A stretch of 64,000 nucleotides of DNA from Escherichia phage BF17: sequence record MW822008.1; one strand, written 5' to 3'. The position numbers and the translations under genes were made by a program. Numbering within the stretch: position 1 is the stretch's first letter; each line of letters begins with the position of its first letter. The notes under the pieces are model-generated. The model made no database searches. It worked only from the letters and a program-made list of their open reading frames with translations, and was not told the origin of the DNA. Positions 41,991 to 60,373 of the stretch are shown here, piece after piece.

Positions 41991-42557
41991 ATGGTCAAAT
42001 CTTTATTACCGCCACCAAAACGTCACAAAATCAAAGAAATGAAAGAACAACGTACATTAAAGATGTACATCAATTTAGTTAAGTTACTGTGTAAAAGTCC
42101 ATCGCTCAAAGCAGAGTTTAAAACTGATGATGACCGCAAAGCACTAATTGAGATGAAGTATATGCTCAGTAAAATGTCCTTTTACAAATTTGTAAAAGAA
42201 TACGCATCTGACCCATTTAGTCCTCGTTGGAGAGCCAAACCAAGAGAGTATTTTTACGGTGGTTCATATACGGATCTCATTCAAGACACAGTGATGGGAG
42301 TTGAATTTGAAATCGATTATGAGCCGAATGGTGTGGAAAGCTGGCCGATTGAGAAACGTTTACCAAGTGAAGAAGAAATTTATGTTTATGCAAGAAAACT
42401 TTCAAATTTCAGTTCAAGAATTACTCTAGGCAATTTAGATTCATTTATTATTTTCTATACACGTGTTGGTGTAGATAAAATGGTAACTAAACTCAATGAA
42501 CTTTCATTACAACAAAAACAGATTAATGCATACAAAGACATTACTGATTTATACTAA
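41991..42557 (+). CDS. tandem-paralog protein A
   Basis: AGGAGG upstream. Shares the (D/N)DxR(K/R)x(L/I)I(E/D)xKYxLSK motif with the next two ORFs. Confidence 0.65.
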   Translation: MVKSLLPPPKRHKIKEMKEQRTLKMYINLVKLLCKSPSLKAEFKTDDDRKALIEMKYMLSKMSFYKFVKEYASDPFSPRWRAKPREYFYGGSYTDLIQDTVMGVEFEIDYEPNGVESWPIEKRLPSEEEIYVYARKLSNFSSRITLGNLDSFIIFYTRVGVDKMVTKLNELSLQQKQINAYKDITDLY

Positions 42558-42563
42558 TGAGGA

Positions 42564-43085
42564 ATGGATATGTTTTTTGGATCAGTTGGAAAACAAAACA
42601 GTACTTTAATTTGGCATGAAATTATCTTTAAAATTATATCTAAAAGCTACTCACTAAAGGATATTATCACCACAGATAATGATAGACGTATCCTGTTAGA
42701 TGCAAAATATAAATTGAGCAAACACCCTTTACTTTCTTTAATCATTGATTACGTTAATGATTATGAATCTAGTCGTTGGAAGTGGGAAGACGGCGGTTTA
42801 TTTCGTGGAAAAACATTCTACGGTGCGGAACGATATGTTTTCAGTGATACATCAAATGGCGTTAAGTTTGCTATTAGAAACTTTAACTCCAAAGAAAATG
42901 ATTATCTTGAAAGTGGAGTGAAAGTATATATCGATAATAATAGCAATGTACTAACATATGACGAATCACTAATTATGTTACAAATAATGCGTGGAGTTGA
43001 AGGTGTAAGAAACAACCTTACTAAATTGAAAATCCAGCAAAATGATATACATAATAGACAGAAAATTAAGGGTTTATATAAATGA
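42564..43085 (+). CDS. tandem-paralog protein B
   Basis: Contains TDNDRRILLDAKYKLSK. Confidence 0.65.
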   Translation: MDMFFGSVGKQNSTLIWHEIIFKIISKSYSLKDIITTDNDRRILLDAKYKLSKHPLLSLIIDYVNDYESSRWKWEDGGLFRGKTFYGAERYVFSDTSNGVKFAIRNFNSKENDYLESGVKVYIDNNSNVLTYDESLIMLQIMRGVEGVRNNLTKLKIQQNDIHNRQKIKGLYK

Positions 43086-43591
43086 TTTCATTTTTCAAAA
43101 AGAAACAAAAAGTTGATGAAACCGGATTAGAATCGTTTCTGTGGACTCTTATCATCAAAAAAAGCCCATTGATGAAAGAATATGCTATCAATGATGCTAA
43201 TAGAAAAACTATCATTGAATACAAATATGAATTATCTAAATGTGATCCAATTGTTTATCACTTTGCGAAGTACTGTTCAAAAAATTTATCGGATATCACA
43301 ATCGACCACGAGTCAGTCCCGATGAGTTTTCCTTATGGTGATTGGGTAGATACTTTTGATATTTTTGATGGGTCAAATGGTTTCAGTTTCTTTTACTCGT
43401 CAAATAAAGCAAATGTTCGTATTAAAACAGACATAGGTTGGACACAGCATAGCTCAAATAAAGAAGATTATAATTTATTAGCTGACGTATACCGAAGTGT
43501 GAAGAATTCAAAGGATATTGATGAAAGAATTAAAAAGCAAAATCGTATATCTTTATCACTTGAAACATACAAGTCAAAGTATGGTGGTTAA
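43082..43591 (+). CDS. tandem-paralog protein C
   Basis: Contains NDANRKTIIEYKYELSK. ATGA overlap with the upstream stop. Confidence 0.65.
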   Translation: MISFFKKKQKVDETGLESFLWTLIIKKSPLMKEYAINDANRKTIIEYKYELSKCDPIVYHFAKYCSKNLSDITIDHESVPMSFPYGDWVDTFDIFDGSNGFSFFYSSNKANVRIKTDIGWTQHSSNKEDYNLLADVYRSVKNSKDIDERIKKQNRISLSLETYKSKYGG

Positions 43592-43593
43592 CT

Positions 43594-43995
43594 ATGACTA
43601 CAGTTGATGATATCTATAGCACTATACGCAATATGAGTACAGATAGAAAAGTATTTGGCGATAAAGAAAAATCTAAGTGTTATGGTATTGATTCTTTTGA
43701 TATAATTTCTTATGAGTACAATACAAGTGGAAATAGTTCACTGAATATCGTCTGTCCTCGTGACCCAGAAAATAATTTTATGTATGTTGAAATTAATAAT
43801 GATGGAATGTTTTTTACAAAAGTTTTCAAAGGTGGAATTAATTACGAACCTATTGAATGTATGAATGAAGAAACTTTCTTTCAAGAAGATACAATTATCA
43901 ATTTAGGTTTTAGTTTTGATGATTATAAAACATTAGAACATGACTTTAATCGTTATTATAATGGTTTCTTAAAGGAGTTAACAATTTATCTATGA
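43594..43995 (+). CDS. hypothetical protein
   Basis: ORF track. Confidence 0.6.
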   Translation: MTTVDDIYSTIRNMSTDRKVFGDKEKSKCYGIDSFDIISYEYNTSGNSSLNIVCPRDPENNFMYVEINNDGMFFTKVFKGGINYEPIECMNEETFFQEDTIINLGFSFDDYKTLEHDFNRYYNGFLKELTIYL

Positions 43996-45224
43996 ATAAC
44001 CAATATATTGAACAAACAATAGTGAAACACTTGGCTGGGTCACAAGCCTACGGAACCAGTACACCGGAAAGTGATACTGATTATCGTGGTATTTTTCTTG
44101 CTAATAAAGAATTTATTCTTACACCCTTCTATAAGGTCAAAGAGGTAGCTGACAAAAGCGAAGAAGATACTAAATTCTATGAGTTGAATCAGTATTTAAA
44201 ATTATACACTGAAGCTAACCCTAATATTCTTGAATCACTTTGGGTTGAACCTGAACACATTGTGGAAAGTACTGAAATTTATGACTATCTTCGTTCATTT
44301 AACCAAAAACTTCTTAGTTCCAAGATTGCATTTTCATACACTGGATATGCATATAATCAGATTAAGCGTATGACAAATCATCACGGTTGGATGGATAAAG
44401 AGCGTATTGCTGAAAAACGATTAAATGAGATTTTAGAAGAACACCCTGTCGATGAGGTTCTTGCGTGGATGTATGATTCATTCCCACAGTATCTTGTTGA
44501 ACGTTTAGATACATCCAACTTACATCCATTTAATGCTAAAAAGATTGATTTTGAAAAATATATGCGTGATACATCATTGCAGTTAGTTTCGAAAAATCCA
44601 TTAAAGCAATATCATTTCGTAAGATTAGTGCATAACTACACTACTGAAAAAATTCTTGATCGTGATTTCAATTTATTGAATTTTAATAATGGTTATGAAC
44701 TAATTCATTACGGAGAAAACATTTTTGCGATTGTTAAGAATCCTAATGAAAGCACTATTAACCATGATGGTTCATTGCGTTATTTTTCAAAAGAACGTAG
44801 TACTGAAGAGTTGAAAACCAAACCAGAACTAATTGTCAAATTTAACGAAAAAGAATATCAGGAAAATAGTGAGAATAGGAAAAGTTATCATAAATGGAAA
44901 GAAAATCGTAATGCCAAACGTGCTATTTTAGAATCACAACACGGATACGATTGTAAACATGCTATGCACACAATCCGACTTTTGAATAGTGCAGAAGAAG
45001 CGTTACAAAGTGGAATTATTCAAGTTAAACGACCAGATGCACAAATGTTGATGGATATTCGTAATGGTAAATGGAAGTATGAAGAAGTATTAGAATATTT
45101 CGATGATAAAGTACAATACATTCGTGATGTTCTATATAAGAAATCAGTACTTCCTAAAAAACCAAACATCAAGTTAGCATCAAAAATTATCATTGATATT
45201 AGAGAAATGCAATGGTATAAGTAA
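43992..45224 (+). CDS. Pol-beta-superfamily nucleotidyltransferase (RlaP-like)
   Basis: N-terminal LAGSQAYGTSTPESDTDYRGIF is the GS...D.D nucleotidyltransferase motif typical of the PF10127-type family. Confidence 0.65.
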   Translation: MNNQYIEQTIVKHLAGSQAYGTSTPESDTDYRGIFLANKEFILTPFYKVKEVADKSEEDTKFYELNQYLKLYTEANPNILESLWVEPEHIVESTEIYDYLRSFNQKLLSSKIAFSYTGYAYNQIKRMTNHHGWMDKERIAEKRLNEILEEHPVDEVLAWMYDSFPQYLVERLDTSNLHPFNAKKIDFEKYMRDTSLQLVSKNPLKQYHFVRLVHNYTTEKILDRDFNLLNFNNGYELIHYGENIFAIVKNPNESTINHDGSLRYFSKERSTEELKTKPELIVKFNEKEYQENSENRKSYHKWKENRNAKRAILESQHGYDCKHAMHTIRLLNSAEEALQSGIIQVKRPDAQMLMDIRNGKWKYEEVLEYFDDKVQYIRDVLYKKSVLPKKPNIKLASKIIIDIREMQWYK

Positions 45225-45301: not shown

Positions 45302-45430
45302 ATGGCACAACAAATTTTCACAGATATCCACACTACCGGAGTTATTAAATTTCAAAATAATTTTTCTGGTGCTACTGGTGTAGACATTAAAAATGATGGT
45401 TTTAACATTGTCAGTACTCGGATCTATTGA
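45302..45430 (+). CDS. short ORF, possibly the 5' part of a frame-split gene
   Basis: ATG after AAGGA. It stops after 42 codons. The downstream ORF overlaps it in the +1 frame and has no SD of its own. Confidence 0.4.
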   Translation: MAQQIFTDIHTTGVIKFQNNFSGATGVDIKNDGFNIVSTRIY

Positions 45431-45929
45431 TGGTGAAGATAGTTCTCTTAGTGATTCTGTGATTGCATCATTCGGAACTAATAAAAACAGTTCTTTTATT
45501 ATATCTGGATGGACTGGAATGACTGATTCTGAAAATAATGTTAAGATAAAAGCTAAAGCTACTAACGAGAATCATGAAACAGAATGGGTAACATTATATG
45601 ATAGTGCAAGTAATAAGTTATATAATGTATTAAGTTCTAATAATATTTTAATTAATCCACTGTCGGGCAATTCTGTTTTTAATATTAATTTATCTGATAG
45701 AAATACTACTATTTCGATTGGTGCGGCTCCTACTGAAGTTTATTCAATTACCATCCTATTAACACAACAAACAGGTTCAAACCTAGTTAATTGGGGTTCT
45801 AATGTTAAATGGTCATATAACAGACCAGTTGTTCTTTCTTATGAAATTGGTGAAAAAGATATTATTTCATTAGAAACATATGATAAAGGAGTTACATGGT
45901 ACGGTGCATTAATTAGAGCAGGAGTATGA
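45393..45929 (+). CDS. hypothetical (structural-like) protein, possibly continuous with 45302 through a frame change
   Basis: ORF track. No obvious RBS before ATG 45393. Confidence 0.5.
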   Translation: MMVLTLSVLGSIDGEDSSLSDSVIASFGTNKNSSFIISGWTGMTDSENNVKIKAKATNENHETEWVTLYDSASNKLYNVLSSNNILINPLSGNSVFNINLSDRNTTISIGAAPTEVYSITILLTQQTGSNLVNWGSNVKWSYNRPVVLSYEIGEKDIISLETYDKGVTWYGALIRAGV

Positions 45930-45930
45930 T

Positions 45931-48720
45931 ATGTTAAACAATAATATTGATAATATTGTACAACTTCTTTATGGGCATCACAAATTTATTGAAAGAAATA
46001 CTGGTGATACAATAGACCCAACAGTACAACATTATGTGGTGAATAATCAGGGTGTTTTGGCGAACAACCGTCATTTTATTAACTATTCTGCAATGGAAGG
46101 TCAACCAAACGGTGACGGGACAACAGAAGGTCAAAGTCTATTAATTTTAGGATACATTTATGCGTATCTGGCAACAAATGATCCAATGTTTTTAGATAAG
46201 GCAAAGTGGTACTGGGACGCATATCATCAGTACTTTTATGCTGGACGTGAATTACCAGATCCACCTACACCACTACAATGTAACTGGATAGTTAATGCCA
46301 AAGAACCTATATTGGCTAACTGGCCTTTAGCTGATGATGGCTGGCCCACACATGGTGGTTTCAAGGGAGTAGAATTTACATTTACTAATGGTCAATGTAA
46401 AATACCACATGGTGCACCATATTATGGTCAGTTCTTGGATAAAGTGACATTTGCATTCAAAGGTGCGTTAGCATGGAACCAAATAAATGCTTCAGTAAAA
46501 GCATTATTACCAGATGGTAGTGTTGATTGGGATACACCAGGTGAACAATATGATGTTGACTGGATTATCGATTTCATGGGTAGAAAAATCGACTGGGATG
46601 GTAATATTTTAGAAGAAGGTTTTGACGAATCTGAAAAAGGAACTGTTCAATTAAAGAATACAACAATTAATGGTGTATATAAATTAAATTTTGCAAATCG
46701 TCAACCAGTAGAATATGGTGGTGTGATAATTCAACGAAATGAAATGCAACACAACCGCCCTCTTCATGTTCCAATTGATTTGGAATTTGCTGATAACGCA
46801 TCAGATGCAGAATTATGGTTTAGTGATGCTTCTTATTTGTTATATAAAATAACAAAAGAAAGAAAACATTATTTGGGTTGGAAATGTTCACTACTAACGT
46901 GTTATGCTTATGGTGATATTGACTCCAGAGATAAATTTTTCAGACAAAGTACAATTGTAACCACACCATTCACTGATGGTATTTCCTATGAATATTTTTA
47001 TCCTAGTGATGCTATTGCTAAGTTTGGTAGAAATTCTCTAGGATATATTACTATCAGGCAAGACCAAAGTGCACAAAGTACTATGGAACAACAAGCTATT
47101 TGGTTCAGGGTCAATGCTGATTCTAAATTACTTGTAGACTATGGTGGTGTATGTGATGATGGTAAGCCGTTATCATTTAAACCAGTACTGGAATTGTCAA
47201 AAACAAAAAATGACCATGATGTTGTTCGTTATCGTTGTGGCTTACCGGAAAGTAAAGACCAAAATATCACACATTCATTAACACCTTTAAGTGCATTTGT
47301 TAGAGAAAAGAAAGCAGATGGTTCCCCTTATATAATTGCTGATAGTAGAATTGTTGTTCCTTATGGTGCAGCTACGTCCGAAATGATATATAGTACTGAT
47401 ATATTAGTTACACGCCGCGATACCATTAATCAGTTAGTTTGTGGTGAAGATGATGGTGCTGTTATTGGATTTTGGCTATTAGCAACAAATAAGTCTGAAG
47501 TTAAATCTTTTACCTATCGTTCATATGAAGATGATTACAATATAAGAATTGTAGATGATAATGGTTGGAGATGGTGGTGGATGATTCCTGCAACACACGG
47601 GGAATGGACTACAATCACACTAAGTTCCGATACATTACGTTTATCTGGGTATCAGCCAAATCATCCAAGTTCTGACCCAAGACCAGATGCACCAGTTTAT
47701 AGTGAACTAGAAGATATTACTATTTTACCTGATACAACCCCAGTAGATGGTGTTGCTGCAATAATTGATTGGTATTGTATTAATGACATTCCAGAATTAT
47801 ACACGGATGCTGACGGTGATGACTATACTATGACATTTTCAATAACAATTGCAGGTGAATCACCATATACTGCACAGTTAGGGGATTGTGTAATCAAGGA
47901 TTATTTGTTAAACTCATTGCATTACACACCAGGAACAATACCATTTTCTAACATCACTGACCCGTATGCGAACCAGTATTCAGGATGGCGTGGTTTACCG
48001 TATCCAGGTTATCAATATCCTGTGATATATTGTTTTAAAGACCAGCCAGTAGATAACACACGCTTAGGAAACATGTTAAGCTTTATGAAAGATTCCCAAA
48101 CATGGTTTACTCAACAATTCGGTACTGTTGGTCCGTGTGCACAAGCATATGTTTGGAACCGCTGGGATAACTTAAAATATGGTGAACCAGATACATTTAC
48201 TATGCTACATTGGGGTGATCAAGCATGGAGTGGGTATGAACCACGTGCGTTCTTTGGGGCTGCCAGAGCATGGCAAGAACTCGCAGAGAGAGGAATTGAA
48301 CCACCAGCAGATCTTGTTGAATTTTGTGAGAATTGGATTCACTTTTTAATTCAATTTCAAAAAGATAATGATGGTCGTTCACCAACAATCTTCAATAAAG
48401 ATGGCACAGTTGAAGGTCCAGATTGGGACTTTACAGGTCATATGTGTGGGTTGTGGTTAGCTGGGGCTTGTGCTGCTGGATTGGCTGGATGTAAAATAGA
48501 AGGTCTAACAACACTCGCTGATAACTTAGTTCTCGAACTTCAAAAGAATTATGTTATTGTAAATCCAGGTTCACCAATGAATGGTTCATGGAGTCCAGCA
48601 GTTAGAGAAGGTACTGATAATGGTATGTTTTTTGGTTTCTGGGCAGGTGAGATTATGCGTGGATTGGGATTATACTCAATGTACCGCTTAAACACACCAA
48701 ATCGTTTCCGTGATTTATAA
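45931..48720 (+). CDS. large (929 aa) protein in the tail-gene block; function unknown, possibly tail-associated or carbohydrate-active
   Basis: Long Trp/Tyr/Gly-rich ORF directly after fibre-like genes. No motif I can name. Confidence 0.6.
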   Translation: MLNNNIDNIVQLLYGHHKFIERNTGDTIDPTVQHYVVNNQGVLANNRHFINYSAMEGQPNGDGTTEGQSLLILGYIYAYLATNDPMFLDKAKWYWDAYHQYFYAGRELPDPPTPLQCNWIVNAKEPILANWPLADDGWPTHGGFKGVEFTFTNGQCKIPHGAPYYGQFLDKVTFAFKGALAWNQINASVKALLPDGSVDWDTPGEQYDVDWIIDFMGRKIDWDGNILEEGFDESEKGTVQLKNTTINGVYKLNFANRQPVEYGGVIIQRNEMQHNRPLHVPIDLEFADNASDAELWFSDASYLLYKITKERKHYLGWKCSLLTCYAYGDIDSRDKFFRQSTIVTTPFTDGISYEYFYPSDAIAKFGRNSLGYITIRQDQSAQSTMEQQAIWFRVNADSKLLVDYGGVCDDGKPLSFKPVLELSKTKNDHDVVRYRCGLPESKDQNITHSLTPLSAFVREKKADGSPYIIADSRIVVPYGAATSEMIYSTDILVTRRDTINQLVCGEDDGAVIGFWLLATNKSEVKSFTYRSYEDDYNIRIVDDNGWRWWWMIPATHGEWTTITLSSDTLRLSGYQPNHPSSDPRPDAPVYSELEDITILPDTTPVDGVAAIIDWYCINDIPELYTDADGDDYTMTFSITIAGESPYTAQLGDCVIKDYLLNSLHYTPGTIPFSNITDPYANQYSGWRGLPYPGYQYPVIYCFKDQPVDNTRLGNMLSFMKDSQTWFTQQFGTVGPCAQAYVWNRWDNLKYGEPDTFTMLHWGDQAWSGYEPRAFFGAARAWQELAERGIEPPADLVEFCENWIHFLIQFQKDNDGRSPTIFNKDGTVEGPDWDFTGHMCGLWLAGACAAGLAGCKIEGLTTLADNLVLELQKNYVIVNPGSPMNGSWSPAVREGTDNGMFFGFWAGEIMRGLGLYSMYRLNTPNRFRDL

Positions 48721-48721
48721 C

Positions 48722-48750
48722 TTGACATAGAAAAAGTAATTATGTATAAT
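48722..48750 (+). promoter_or_regulatory. promoter: TTGACA-N17-TATAAT with a TG extension
   Basis: Consensus hexamers. Predicted start near 48757 lies inside the 5' arm of the terminator at 48752..48782. Confidence 0.65.
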
Positions 48751-48751
48751 C

Positions 48752-48782
48752 AGAGAACTTCATATGGAGTTCTCTTTTTTTT
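48752..48782 (+). terminator. intrinsic terminator
   Basis: AGAGAACT-N8-AGTTCTCT followed by T8. Confidence 0.75.
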
Positions 48783-48795
48783 ATAAGGTGATAAA

Positions 48796-49215
48796 ATGTT
48801 AAATGAACGTATTAAAAATGCACTACATGTATTGAACCAAGAAGTCAATTCTATTCATAAAAGTACTGACCGTTATAAAGTAATGCATGAAATCAAACAA
48901 GAATTGGAATCTATTAATAAGGGAGAGTGGTGGTATCTTCAGCCCGAATATCAAACTCGTGAATTAAACGATGTTGAAAAAGAAATTGTCAAATTCATCA
49001 CTACTCGTTATTGTGATACATCAGAGAATGATGTATCAGCGAACTTCAATCTTACTAAATTGGAAGTCGAAGAAAAATTCCATTTTGATTGGCTTGATTG
49101 GATTGAAATGGTAATGGAACTAGAAGAAAAATTCAATGTTGAAGTTGATGAAAAGTTCGAGAATAATGAAACTAAGCTGTATGAACTAGTAGAACATATT
49201 CAAAAAATGTTGTAA
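48796..49215 (+). CDS. acyl-carrier-protein-like protein lacking the phosphopantetheine serine
   Basis: The C-terminal 75 aa align position by position with E. coli ACP. FHFDWLDWIEMVMELEEKFNVEV matches [23 protein letters not shown]. The DSL serine is Trp (TGG at 49090..49092). Confidence 0.65.
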   Translation: MLNERIKNALHVLNQEVNSIHKSTDRYKVMHEIKQELESINKGEWWYLQPEYQTRELNDVEKEIVKFITTRYCDTSENDVSANFNLTKLEVEEKFHFDWLDWIEMVMELEEKFNVEVDEKFENNETKLYELVEHIQKML

Positions 49216-49218
49216 AAC

Positions 49219-49232
49219 TATACAATTGTATA
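49219..49232. promoter_or_regulatory. perfect 14-bp palindrome TATACAATTGTATA upstream of the spanin genes
   Basis: Self-complementary. Overlaps the extended -10-like TGTATACT at 49227..49234. Confidence 0.35.
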
Positions 49233-49268
49233 CTCTAAATAATATCATCAACTATAGGAGATATTATT

Positions 49269-49643
49269 ATGAGTATGTTAGAAATAATTGTTTCAAAAAT
49301 TCTTATTCCATTTTGGAAACCAATTTCTTTTGTATTATTAATTGGCGGTTCAGCTTATGCTGGTTGGGAAGCTAATACTTATTACAGTGGATATCAACAA
49401 AGCATAGAGCAACAAATAGCTAAAAAAGTTGATACCGCCTTGGATAAAATGCAACAAGAAAATGCAAAAAATTACCTTGAAACTAAAAAAATCATGGAAG
49501 ATAATGCTAAAGTTATTGAAACAAAGGTTCCTTTTATTGTAGAACGTGAAGTTTATAAGAATGTATGTTTAGATGAAGATGGTGTAAAAGTACTGAATGA
49601 ACTAAAACAAAATTCTCAAGCAGCGAGGAATAAATTCAAATGA
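49269..49643 (+). CDS. i-spanin (Rz-like)
   Basis: N-terminal TM helix followed by a charged helical periplasmic part. Overlaps the downstream lipoprotein gene through ATGA. Confidence 0.6.
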   Translation: MSMLEIIVSKILIPFWKPISFVLLIGGSAYAGWEANTYYSGYQQSIEQQIAKKVDTALDKMQQENAKNYLETKKIMEDNAKVIETKVPFIVEREVYKNVCLDEDGVKVLNELKQNSQAARNKFK

Positions 49644-49948
49644 AAAAATTATTAGTTCCAATGATTTCTTTTTTAATTATAAGTGGGTGTGCCGAGCAAG
49701 TAAAACTACAATCCCCCGCACCAATTAAACAAGAAATTCTGTTAGAAAGATGTGATGATGATACACCTCTACCACAAAAAATTATGATTGACAAAAATGG
49801 TTTTAAAGGTTATGATGGTGCAGAAATTCTTAAAGTACTTACTCGTTGGGATGCAGTCTACAATGAATGTGCTTTAAAACACGACGCATTGATTAAAACT
49901 ATTCGTGATTTACAAGGTAAAGATATTAAAATCAATATCAAGGAATAA
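49640..49948 (+). CDS. o-spanin (outer-membrane lipoprotein)
   Basis: Signal plus lipobox MKKLLVPMISFLIISGC. Confidence 0.6.
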   Translation: MKKLLVPMISFLIISGCAEQVKLQSPAPIKQEILLERCDDDTPLPQKIMIDKNGFKGYDGAEILKVLTRWDAVYNECALKHDALIKTIRDLQGKDIKINIKE

Positions 49949-49949
49949 A

Positions 49950-50561
49950 ATGAACAAATATCATGTTTACTATACGACAAAATTATCACTTCTTGAAGAA
50001 TTAAATCAACGAAGTACTAAGATGAAACGCTACACTTTAAATGGTATTACTTTTCGATATTTCCCACAAAAAGTTCTTACTTTTGTTAAGAATCCAAAAT
50101 GCGTGGCATGTGGGATTGAAGCTACTGAAGTACGCATTGAACGTTCATTATGTTCTGATCCAGTATATGGTAAACCACATTTAAATGTATATGCTGTATG
50201 TGGTCTTTATGAAGTTTTAATGACAGTTGACCATAATCATCTGGCATCTAAGGGTGGACCTGATTTAGAGTCAAACTTTAATACTATGTGCTCCAGATGT
50301 AATCAACTACGTTCGAATAAAACTGAAACAGTTGATGAGTTTCTTGAGAAAGTTAAAGGTCGTAATCTTCTCCAAGAACATATGAATAATTTCTTTAATG
50401 TACAAAAAAAGAAAAATAACATTGACAAGTCGAAACTACTAGAAGAACGTAGGTTACGTCAAGAATTATGGGAAACCGATCATCTATGGCATGTTCGAGA
50501 GTTTGGTCGTCATATGAAAGCTTTGAAAAAAGAACAGAAGAAATTGAATAAACATGATTGA
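49950..50561 (+). CDS. free-standing HNH endonuclease
   Basis: Contains VDHNHLASKGGPDLESNFNTMCSRCNQLRSNK (HNH with Cys pairs). ATG at 49950 follows AAGGA. Confidence 0.75.
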   Translation: MNKYHVYYTTKLSLLEELNQRSTKMKRYTLNGITFRYFPQKVLTFVKNPKCVACGIEATEVRIERSLCSDPVYGKPHLNVYAVCGLYEVLMTVDHNHLASKGGPDLESNFNTMCSRCNQLRSNKTETVDEFLEKVKGRNLLQEHMNNFFNVQKKKNNIDKSKLLEERRLRQELWETDHLWHVREFGRHMKALKKEQKKLNKHD

Positions 50562-50572
50562 TATGATATTAT
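50544..50572 (+). promoter_or_regulatory. promoter: TTGAAT-N17-TATTAT with a TG extension
   Basis: Predicted start near 50579 lies inside the 5' arm of the terminator at 50574..50602. Confidence 0.55.
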
Positions 50573-50573
50573 A

Positions 50574-50602
50574 GGGACTTGAGTATTCAAGTCCTTTTTT
50601 TT
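50574..50602 (+). terminator. intrinsic terminator after the HNH gene
   Basis: GGACTTGA-GTAT-TCAAGTCC followed by T8. Confidence 0.75.
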
Positions 50603-59986: not shown

Positions 59987-60319
59987 ATGCTAAATCTAGT
60001 TATCCAAGGTAATGTTGATATTACTCCAGCAATCAATGACGCAATTCATGCTGAAGCAAATGCACTAACGAAGTTTAGTGATTCTTCAGTACTGCATATT
60101 GGTGTTCATGTGAAGAAAGAGCATAAGAATCAATATTTCGTAACTTTAACATCAGGCGGTAAGAGTGTTACAGCCGATGATGCAGATTTATACAAAGCAA
60201 TTGGTGATTCATTTGAAAAAATGGAAACTGTCTTAGGTAAAGACAAAAGCATCAAATTGTATCGCCGTAACCACCCCGAACATCCAGTTCAAGAAGACTT
60301 GACTGAAGACGAAGAGTAA
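59987..60319 (+). CDS. hpf: ribosome hibernation promoting factor / RaiA family
   Basis: MLNLVIQGNVDITPAINDAIHAE...LYKAIGDSFEKME aligns with E. coli HPF (MQLNITGNNVEITEALREFV...MYAAIDGLIDKL). Confidence 0.8.
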   Translation: MLNLVIQGNVDITPAINDAIHAEANALTKFSDSSVLHIGVHVKKEHKNQYFVTLTSGGKSVTADDADLYKAIGDSFEKMETVLGKDKSIKLYRRNHPEHPVQEDLTEDEE

Positions 60320-60327
60320 GATATAAT
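60299..60327 (+). promoter_or_regulatory. promoter: TTGACT-N17-TATAAT, overlapping the hpf stop
   Basis: Predicted start near 60334 lies inside the 5' arm of the terminator at 60331..60358. Confidence 0.55.
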
Positions 60328-60330
60328 AAA

Positions 60331-60358
60331 GGGACAGAGATTATTCTGTCCCTTTTCT
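60331..60358 (+). terminator. intrinsic terminator after hpf
   Basis: GGGACAGA-GATTAT-TCTGTCCC followed by TTTTCTT. Confidence 0.7.
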
Positions 60359-60373
60359 TATGGAGTTTTAATT

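Follow-up and report, generated by a model that had tools for sequence, protein, structure and literature searches.

Acyl carrier protein (ACP) is among the most connected proteins of E. coli. The E. coli protein AcpP (PF00550/TIGR00517) has its phosphopantetheine-attachment site at Ser36, the serine of a DSL motif at the N-terminus of helix II. ACPs also occur in phages. Those of phrog_5934 and phrog_4154, in ViI-like and phiCbK-like phages, are single-domain proteins of approximately 80-110 amino acids (aa) that are annotated as carriers. In contrast, the ACPs of the jumbo phages CBB, GAP32, XbC2, BF, Yen9-04 and Munch have an additional N-terminal domain. We analyzed a 64,000-nucleotide (nt) stretch of DNA from Escherichia phage BF17 (sequence record MW822008.1), which is called the window in the following and which encodes an ACP-like protein at positions 48796-49215. 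This protein shares with the N-extended jumbo-phage ACPs the two-domain architecture, a (D/E/K)RY motif and a gene position upstream of the spanins. However, the jumbo-phage proteins have the motif DSLD and an overlapping neighbor gene of phrog_21561, while in the window protein the motif reads DWLDW, PF00550 is not matched and phrog_21561 is absent from its genus. We estimate with a probability of about 0.5 that the product of this gene, an ACP-fold protein, stays permanently in the apo form and has a role that needs no cofactor and is not that of a carrier.

The window belongs to the genus Asteriusvirus, i.e. to the 121Q/PBECO4 group of ca. 350 kb E. coli jumbo myophages. Between 47800 and 50600 its sequence is the same as that of phage 121Q (100% identity), but over 40000-64000 the identity to the best records (PBECO4, UB, JP4, phAPEC6) is only about 94%, and the window coordinates drift relative to the 121Q record NC_025447; the window is thus distinct from 121Q. 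The protein itself is identical to 121Q gp510, to phAPEC6 gp313c and to the copy in CRJP21. Some copies are labeled in GenBank as 'acyl carrier protein', 'acpP', 'carrier domain-containing protein' or 'D-alanyl carrier protein 1', and the ACP homology of the gene is therefore not new. The names 'acyl carrier protein', 'acpP' and 'D-alanyl carrier protein 1' overstate the capability of the gene product. Our searches of the literature for phage ACP mimics or decoys, or for this gene, yielded only a single remark, in PMC7760394. Judging by these searches, the missing serine, its repeated loss in a defined phage branch and the accompanying loss of a partner gene appear to be unreported. The parts of the protein are as follows.

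48796-49215, plus strand: coding sequence of 139 aa for the N-extended ACP-fold protein, matching phrog_18343 over its full length (E 1.3e-61)
48796-48927, plus strand: N-terminal helical hairpin, aa 1-44 (helices 4-18 and 23-41), from model and alignment
48928-48966, plus strand: low-confidence linker, aa 45-57, with a predicted local distance difference test score (pLDDT) below 50 at residues 45-53 and a length that varies among relatives
48967-49212, plus strand: ACP-like four-helix bundle, aa 58-139, with a 5-aa insertion in loop I
49087-49101, plus strand: degenerate attachment motif D98-W99-L100-D101-W102, equivalent to D35-S36-L37-D38-T39 of AcpP

The relationship of the C-terminal domain to ACPs was analyzed with sequence and profile methods. 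The protein matched phrog_5934 'acyl carrier protein' with an E value of 1.1e-7 and phrog_4154 with 5e-6; these weak but significant profile matches to the single-domain phage ACPs are accompanied by structural matches in BFVD. The matches to TIGR00517 (E 2.6e-5, 24 bits) and PP-binding_2 (E 1.6e-3, 19.1 bits) remained below the respective cut-offs of 70.45 and 32 bits, and a scan with PF00550 gave no match at E≤10. The curated thresholds for PF00550 and TIGR00517 are hence not reached. A search of solved ACPs in the PDB gave E 9e-4 with the single sequence and E 9e-8 with a profile of 14 family sequences; the latter alignment spans ACP residues 3-74. BLASTP against E. coli AcpP found 15 identities in 31 residues from helix II to loop II (pairwise E 1e-6), while tblastn of AcpP against the 64-kb window returned nothing at E≤10. 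The similarity to ACPs thus exceeds chance, albeit at the profile level only. The AlphaFold2 model (pLDDT 78; predicted template modeling score, pTM, 0.55) consists of a helical hairpin (residues 4-41), a disordered linker (45-53) and a four-helix bundle (59-138) with the fold of a carrier protein.

The first-pass annotation had read the gene as an ACP homolog in which the serine of the DSL motif is replaced by tryptophan, and both points held. Codon 99 is TGG (49090-49092), and all HMMER and BLASTP alignments set W99 against Ser36, flanked by D98 (D35 in AcpP) and by L100 and D101 (L37 and D38); since this is so in every alignment, the core observation is correct. Judged from these alignments, the canonical attachment serine is missing and phosphopantetheinylation at the canonical site, i.e. 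conversion to holo-ACP, is not possible. The claim that the protein keeps the acidic helix II of ACPs was also borne out: D98, D101, E104, M107, E110, E111 and F113 are equivalent to D35, D38, E41, M44, E47, E48 and F50 of AcpP, and the C-terminal domain has a net charge of -14, compared to -15 in AcpP. Two further statements of the annotation require correction. A gapless alignment of the C-terminal 75 residues is obtained only for residues ~92-137 (helices II-IV), while helix I can only be aligned with a 5-residue insertion in loop I. An N-terminal extension is indeed present, but according to the AlphaFold2 model it has a length of approximately 57 rather than 65 aa. The protein thus resembles AcpP in helix II, in the identities between helix II and loop II and in its charge; it differs by the replacement of Ser36 and of T39 by Trp, by the loop I insertion, by the hairpin and by scores below the curated cut-offs.

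Next we followed the attachment site through the relatives of the gene. The family alignment comprised 25 distinct sequences, and the column statistics and the outgroup-rooted tree were computed from this same set. Whether the tryptophan is conserved in relatives had been left as a check by the first-pass annotation, and it is not: site 99 has six residue types and an entropy of 2.04. Tryptophan occupies it in the 121Q and Ecwhy_1 clades, and serine in A4, UE-S1, P0008-11 and P0015. Threonine arose independently in P0040 and throughout the RaK2 clade, and JNE01, P0014 and P0016 have N, R and E, respectively. This variability is confined to Asteriusvirus and Alcyoneusvirus. DSLD is kept in the Eneladusvirus proteins (Yersinia phage fHe-Yen9-04 g153 and Serratia phage BF gp158), in those of Mimasvirus (CBB gp163, GAP32_159 and XbC2_157) and in Munch_181 (gp181 of Salmonella phage Munch). 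Both of the orthologs scanned pass PF00550 (Yen9-04 g153 with 39 bits and CBB gp163 with 35.6 bits; cut-off 20.8), while all members from Asteriusvirus and Alcyoneusvirus score under this cut-off. An hhalign comparison of the family profile with the Yen9-04 and CBB orthologs covered both domains with a probability of 97% (E 1e-11).

The tree rooted on the DSLD outgroups indicates that serine is ancestral and that it was replaced independently at least 4-5 times (T, E, N/R, W and T again). D98, D101 and F113 are invariant in all 25 sequences. W102, the equivalent of T39 in AcpP, is fixed only in Asteriusvirus and Alcyoneusvirus, the branch in which the serine became free to vary. The Ser codon of A4 is TCA; the Trp codon TGG is one step from TCG. 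We also considered the tryptophan as a designed or conserved device. This was rejected: with six residues at the site and serine as the ancestral state, Trp is one outcome of a relaxed constraint. One sequence in this comparison is wrongly delimited in its record. GAP32_159 is annotated from an internal start (L013 position 1663), but its open reading frame (ORF; L013:1501-1917) reaches upstream to give 138 aa including the hairpin; the deposited annotation therefore cuts off this domain.

The distribution of residues at site 99 also bears on the idea that the carrier function persists, with loading at another residue or by an unconventional transferase. The window protein lacks Ser and Thr both at this site and beside it (FDWLDW), and the W, N, R and E of its relatives cannot accept a phosphodiester. 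Searching with E. coli AcpS by tblastn, a method with limited sensitivity for distant phosphopantetheinyl transferases (PPTases), gave no match in these jumbo phages or in the window. Pfam and PHROG scans of the window neighbors, namely four small ORFs and the RlaP nucleotidyltransferase ORF upstream (41991-45224, corresponding to 121Q gp502-506) and five ORFs downstream (gp511-515), detected no acyl-, lipid- or PPTase-related domain. We consider a carrier function of this kind to be extremely improbable.

The loss of the serine could alternatively mean that the gene is a decaying relic, in which the carrier pathway was dismantled together with the loss of the upstream gene phrog_21561 and the ORF persists without function. 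Consistent with decay are the unconstrained serine site, the scores of all Asteriusvirus and Alcyoneusvirus members under the PF00550 cut-off, the absence of phrog_21561 and a fast evolution. The window copy and that of UE-S1 are 70% identical over the whole protein (64% in the ACP domain, 89% in the hairpin), whereas the three downstream genes are 88-96% identical; the ACP domain hence evolves faster than its neighbors. However, the ratio of nonsynonymous to synonymous substitution rates (dN/dS) of the window copy is 0.17 against PBECO4, 0.20 against Ecwhy_1 (a pair in which both proteins have W), 0.29 against UE-S1 and 0.16 against A4. These low ratios indicate that the gene is under purifying selection and, on the available evidence, still functional. 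Decay is also at odds with an ORF that is intact in ca. 50 matched phage records, with invariant residues in both domains and with a conserved consensus promoter and ribosome-binding site of its own. Together, these data make it very unlikely that the gene is a relic.

The repeated loss of the serine in the relatives suggests that the protein probably acts by binding other proteins. Its ancestors were ordinary-looking DSLD ACPs fused to a helical hairpin of ca. 55 aa at the N-terminus. In the branch of Asteriusvirus and Alcyoneusvirus the constraint on the serine was dropped and many replacements were accepted, among them the Trp found here, while the remainder of the protein was held by purifying selection; Asteriusvirus also lost phrog_21561. 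A function that survives without phosphopantetheine is expected to work through contacts made by the acidic helix II (DxxDW...E..M..EE.F) and by the conserved hairpin. A stable, cofactor-free protein with the ACP fold that is kept by selection might serve as a probe for those contacts of ACP that do not need the prosthetic group.

The second change in Asteriusvirus concerns the gene upstream. In every other genus examined, a gene of phrog_21561, encoding 185-189 aa, overlaps the 5' end of the ACP gene. Such an overlapping gene was found in RaK2, CBB, GAP32, XbC2, BF, Yen9-04 and Munch; examples are the following.

RaK2 ORF008, at L002:2441-3001
CBB gp162, at L008:2978-3544
Munch gp180, at L016:963-1517

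A search by tblastn found phrog_21561 in 43 phage records, with none from Escherichia phages and none in the window, where the 5' end of the ACP-like gene accordingly has no such overlap. Across four jumbo-phage genera the phrog_21561 proteins are 55-61% identical, far above the conservation of the ACP itself. Their invariant motifs are HxDC.NDI.DDFEPETH, TSKVLH.CP and CQR.LIR.T.GFK (HxD...H, Cys-rich). A profile search of the family against Pfam and PDB gave no match; distant relatives occur in ca. 95 kb Acinetobacter phages. The proteins are occasionally annotated, putatively, as 'oxidoreductase', and they may be metal-dependent oxygenases that act on a carrier-tethered substrate. From these comparisons, Asteriusvirus has lost both the constraint on the serine and the usual neighbor gene. 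Alcyoneusvirus has Thr at site 99 and yet keeps phrog_21561. The series from DSLD with the partner gene, over Thr with the partner (Alcyoneusvirus), to a variable site without it (Asteriusvirus) represents a clean natural experiment on the repurposing of a carrier protein.

The N-terminal hairpin is better conserved than the ACP domain, with a mean column entropy of 1.32 compared to 1.58. Its residues A9, L10, E16, S23 and Y27 are invariant, the latter two belonging to a 'STDRY' motif. The orthologs in Eneladusvirus, Mimasvirus and the Munch-like phages likewise have a hairpin with the (D/E/K)RY motif, and the window protein shares this fusion of a ca. 55-aa hairpin to an ACP domain. As the best-conserved part of the protein, and one that is specific to this phage clade, the hairpin could bind a second phage protein. 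The ACP fold would then be a small acidic docking module, and the whole protein would serve a partner encoded by the phage, as its adaptor or structural subunit, with no host target. The gene is a core, syntenic gene in at least five jumbo-phage lineages, which is in line with a partner encoded by the phage. The data on virions point in two directions. An ACP was detected in virions of Eneladusvirus by liquid chromatography-tandem mass spectrometry (PMC7760394), but in the mass spectrometry of phAPEC6 virions, which identified 62 proteins, the identical gp313c was missing while the neighboring tail fibre gp314c was present. Furthermore, the cellular precedents for such adaptors mostly rely on acyl-phosphopantetheine, which is impossible here, and the one obvious candidate for the partner gene, phrog_21561, is absent from Asteriusvirus. 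We consider the adaptor to be a possible explanation, though a somewhat unlikely one.

The signals around the start of the gene suggest when it might be expressed.

48722-48750, plus strand: sigma-70 consensus promoter (TTGACA, 17 nt, TATAAT), the only 12/12 match in the 64-kb window
48752-48783, plus strand: terminator-like 10-bp stem-loop followed by a T8 run, 2 nt past the -10 box, -13 kcal/mol, annotated as a terminator in UE-S1
48785-48791, plus strand: Shine-Dalgarno sequence AAGGTGA, 4 nt before the ATG, as read from the sequence
50573-50602, plus strand: terminator-like hairpin with a T-run after the HNH gene, abutted by a promoter-like site at 50544-50572

The strong promoter that had been predicted at 48722 is thus a perfect match to the consensus. 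The promoter and the hairpin are kept as a module upstream of the gene in PBECO4, UE-S1, A4 and JNE01, despite a differing upstream gene, and are missing in Ecwhy_1. The hairpin at 48752-48783 would end the incoming tail-fibre transcript. A transcript of the gene itself is predicted to start about 7 nt past the -10 box, within the 5' arm of the hairpin, and would therefore escape termination. Between the ACP-like gene and the i-spanin gene (49216-49268) no terminator-like site was found, and the next one, at 50573-50596, follows the HNH gene; the apparent unit therefore consists of the genes for the ACP-like protein, the i-spanin, the o-spanin and the HNH endonuclease. Being the first gene of this unit, with two spanins and an HNH endonuclease behind it, and having a host-type consensus promoter, the gene is predicted to be expressed early. 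Its product is presumably not a virion component. The same kind of module recurs at 48722-48783, 50544-50602 and 60299-60360, each time as a near-consensus sigma-70 promoter with a strong hairpin and T-run 0-2 nt past the -10 box. With the predicted start inside the 5' arm, such a module could stop upstream transcripts and let its own pass.

For a permanently apo protein that is made early, the leading candidate for a target would be a host enzyme to which ACP binds by its helix II; the phage protein would compete for this site without being able to carry an acyl group. Such a decoy for host ACP is plausible, given the retained surface of helix II and the precedent of apo-ACP. The latter is reported to inhibit glycerol-3-phosphate acyltransferase more strongly than holo-ACP, and overproduction to stop growth (review PMC3896788). 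The inhibitory apo-ACP also has the ACP fold without the prosthetic group; but it is the host's own unmodified protein, whereas the phage protein is only about 25% identical to AcpP overall and has an extra domain. Among the host partners that the first-pass annotation had listed, SpoT is weakened as a candidate, since SpoT reportedly does not bind apo-ACP (review PMC3896788). In its most specific form, this idea is that a former carrier has become a specialized mimic of host AcpP that cannot be acylated. Produced as infection begins, it would bind an essential host enzyme (for example PlsB or an enzyme of lipid A or fatty acid synthesis) where ACP normally docks and so shut down or redirect envelope lipid synthesis, with the putatively exposed pair W99/W102 plugging the entrance of the pantetheine tunnel. 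In this detailed form we regard it as unlikely. If a host enzyme is indeed the target, the protein would represent a novel type of factor for taking over the host, and it would offer a starting point for inhibitors of lipid synthesis.

Several observations weigh against a cofactor-free protein that works through helix II early in infection. Serine is still present in 10 of the 25 family sequences (6 from the Asteriusvirus/Alcyoneusvirus branch and 4 outgroups), so that the cofactor may retain its importance for some lineages of Asteriusvirus. In all ACPs helix II is more conserved than the rest, partly for structural reasons, and its retention is therefore no proof of partner docking. The AlphaFold2 model has a moderate confidence only (pTM 0.55), and the activity and timing of the promoter are predicted from its match to the consensus. 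Finally, a purely early cytoplasmic effector would hardly be expected in virions, where the Eneladusvirus ACP was detected.

The genes downstream are arranged as follows.

49269-49643, plus strand: i-spanin of 124 aa with an N-terminal transmembrane segment (phrog_1152, Rz-like spanin, E 6.6e-29)
49640-49948, plus strand: o-spanin, a lipoprotein of 102 aa with the lipobox IISGC, overlapping the i-spanin gene by 4 nt
49950-50561, plus strand: HNH endonuclease of 203 aa (PF01844, phrog_23285), the last gene of the apparent unit

The position just upstream of the spanins, as described in the first-pass annotation, is therefore correct; a published census of spanins includes 121Q and PBECO4 (PMC6139136). 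An ACP gene immediately upstream of the spanin pair was found here and in A4, JNE01, RaK2, the metagenomic contig L005, Yen9-04, CBB, GAP32, XbC2, BF and Munch. The adjacency was also remarked in the Eneladusvirus paper (PMC7760394). It is the one invariant of the gene context in Asteriusvirus, Alcyoneusvirus, Eneladusvirus, Mimasvirus and the Munch-like phages, while the upstream side changes in three ways. This raises the question of whether the protein is a cytoplasmic accessory of the lysis or envelope-disruption module, which works with the co-transcribed spanins or regulates them. The lack of a terminator before the i-spanin in the window agrees with such a role, and the putatively exposed Trp pair found in several lineages (W99/W102, DTWDW/DSWDW) might suit a membrane interface. 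However, the whole region is collinear among these genera, and the adjacency to the spanins may therefore be mere inherited gene order; in Munch, moreover, a terminator is annotated between the ACP gene and the i-spanin. The functional domains of the spanins are periplasmic, whereas the ACP-like protein has neither a signal peptide nor a transmembrane segment. The acylation of lipoproteins by Lgt and Lnt uses phospholipids and not acyl-ACP as donors, which also counts against this role. Taken together, we find a role as lysis accessory quite unlikely.

The HNH gene directly follows the o-spanin gene in Asteriusvirus, RaK2, Yen9-04, Munch and L005, but not in CBB, GAP32, XbC2 and BF. Such a stable slot is unusual for a type of gene that is normally mobile.

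On the upstream side, the ACP gene directly follows the gene for the RlaP nucleotidyltransferase in Ecwhy_1, UE-S1 and L005. In the window a tail-fibre cassette lies between the two, and the immediate upstream gene encodes a tail protein of 929 aa.

45393-48720: tail-fibre cassette (proteins of 178 aa and 929 aa plus a small ORF), absent in Ecwhy_1, UE-S1 and L005

The cassette looks like a swappable host-range module. The megablast coverage of several relatives begins only past it. Further upstream of the nucleotidyltransferase gene, positions 41991-43591 contain three tandem paralogs of 169-188 aa, which belong to the cross-matching families phrog_18641 and phrog_7868.

The ACP-like family has a narrow distribution. 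It forms a PHROG of its own (18343) which, unlike the single-domain phage ACPs, includes the N-terminal domain. A scan of IMG/VR with the family profile returned solely the contig of 121Q, and an exhaustive search of representatives found 9 matches only, indicating that the family is small and restricted to phages, more precisely to jumbo phages. The gene in the window is not a lone invention but represents, in this phage, a core gene of Enterobacterales jumbo phages of >300 kb. In the records of the Salmonella phages SD-15_S21 (P0004), SD-1_S14 and SD-6_S16 the ACP-like ORF is either joined to downstream sequence (192 aa) or shortened; as their DNA and the window share about 99% identity, this probably reflects a frameshift or an assembly error. 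The weak matches include bacterial proteins in which an ACP-like domain is fused to other modules. One of them (P0019) combines a HigA-like helix-turn-helix with an ACP domain containing DSLD. Another (P0100) combines a TIR domain with an ACP domain that has Glu at the site of the attachment serine (HADELD); this serine-less fusion may be another cofactor-independent use of the ACP fold.
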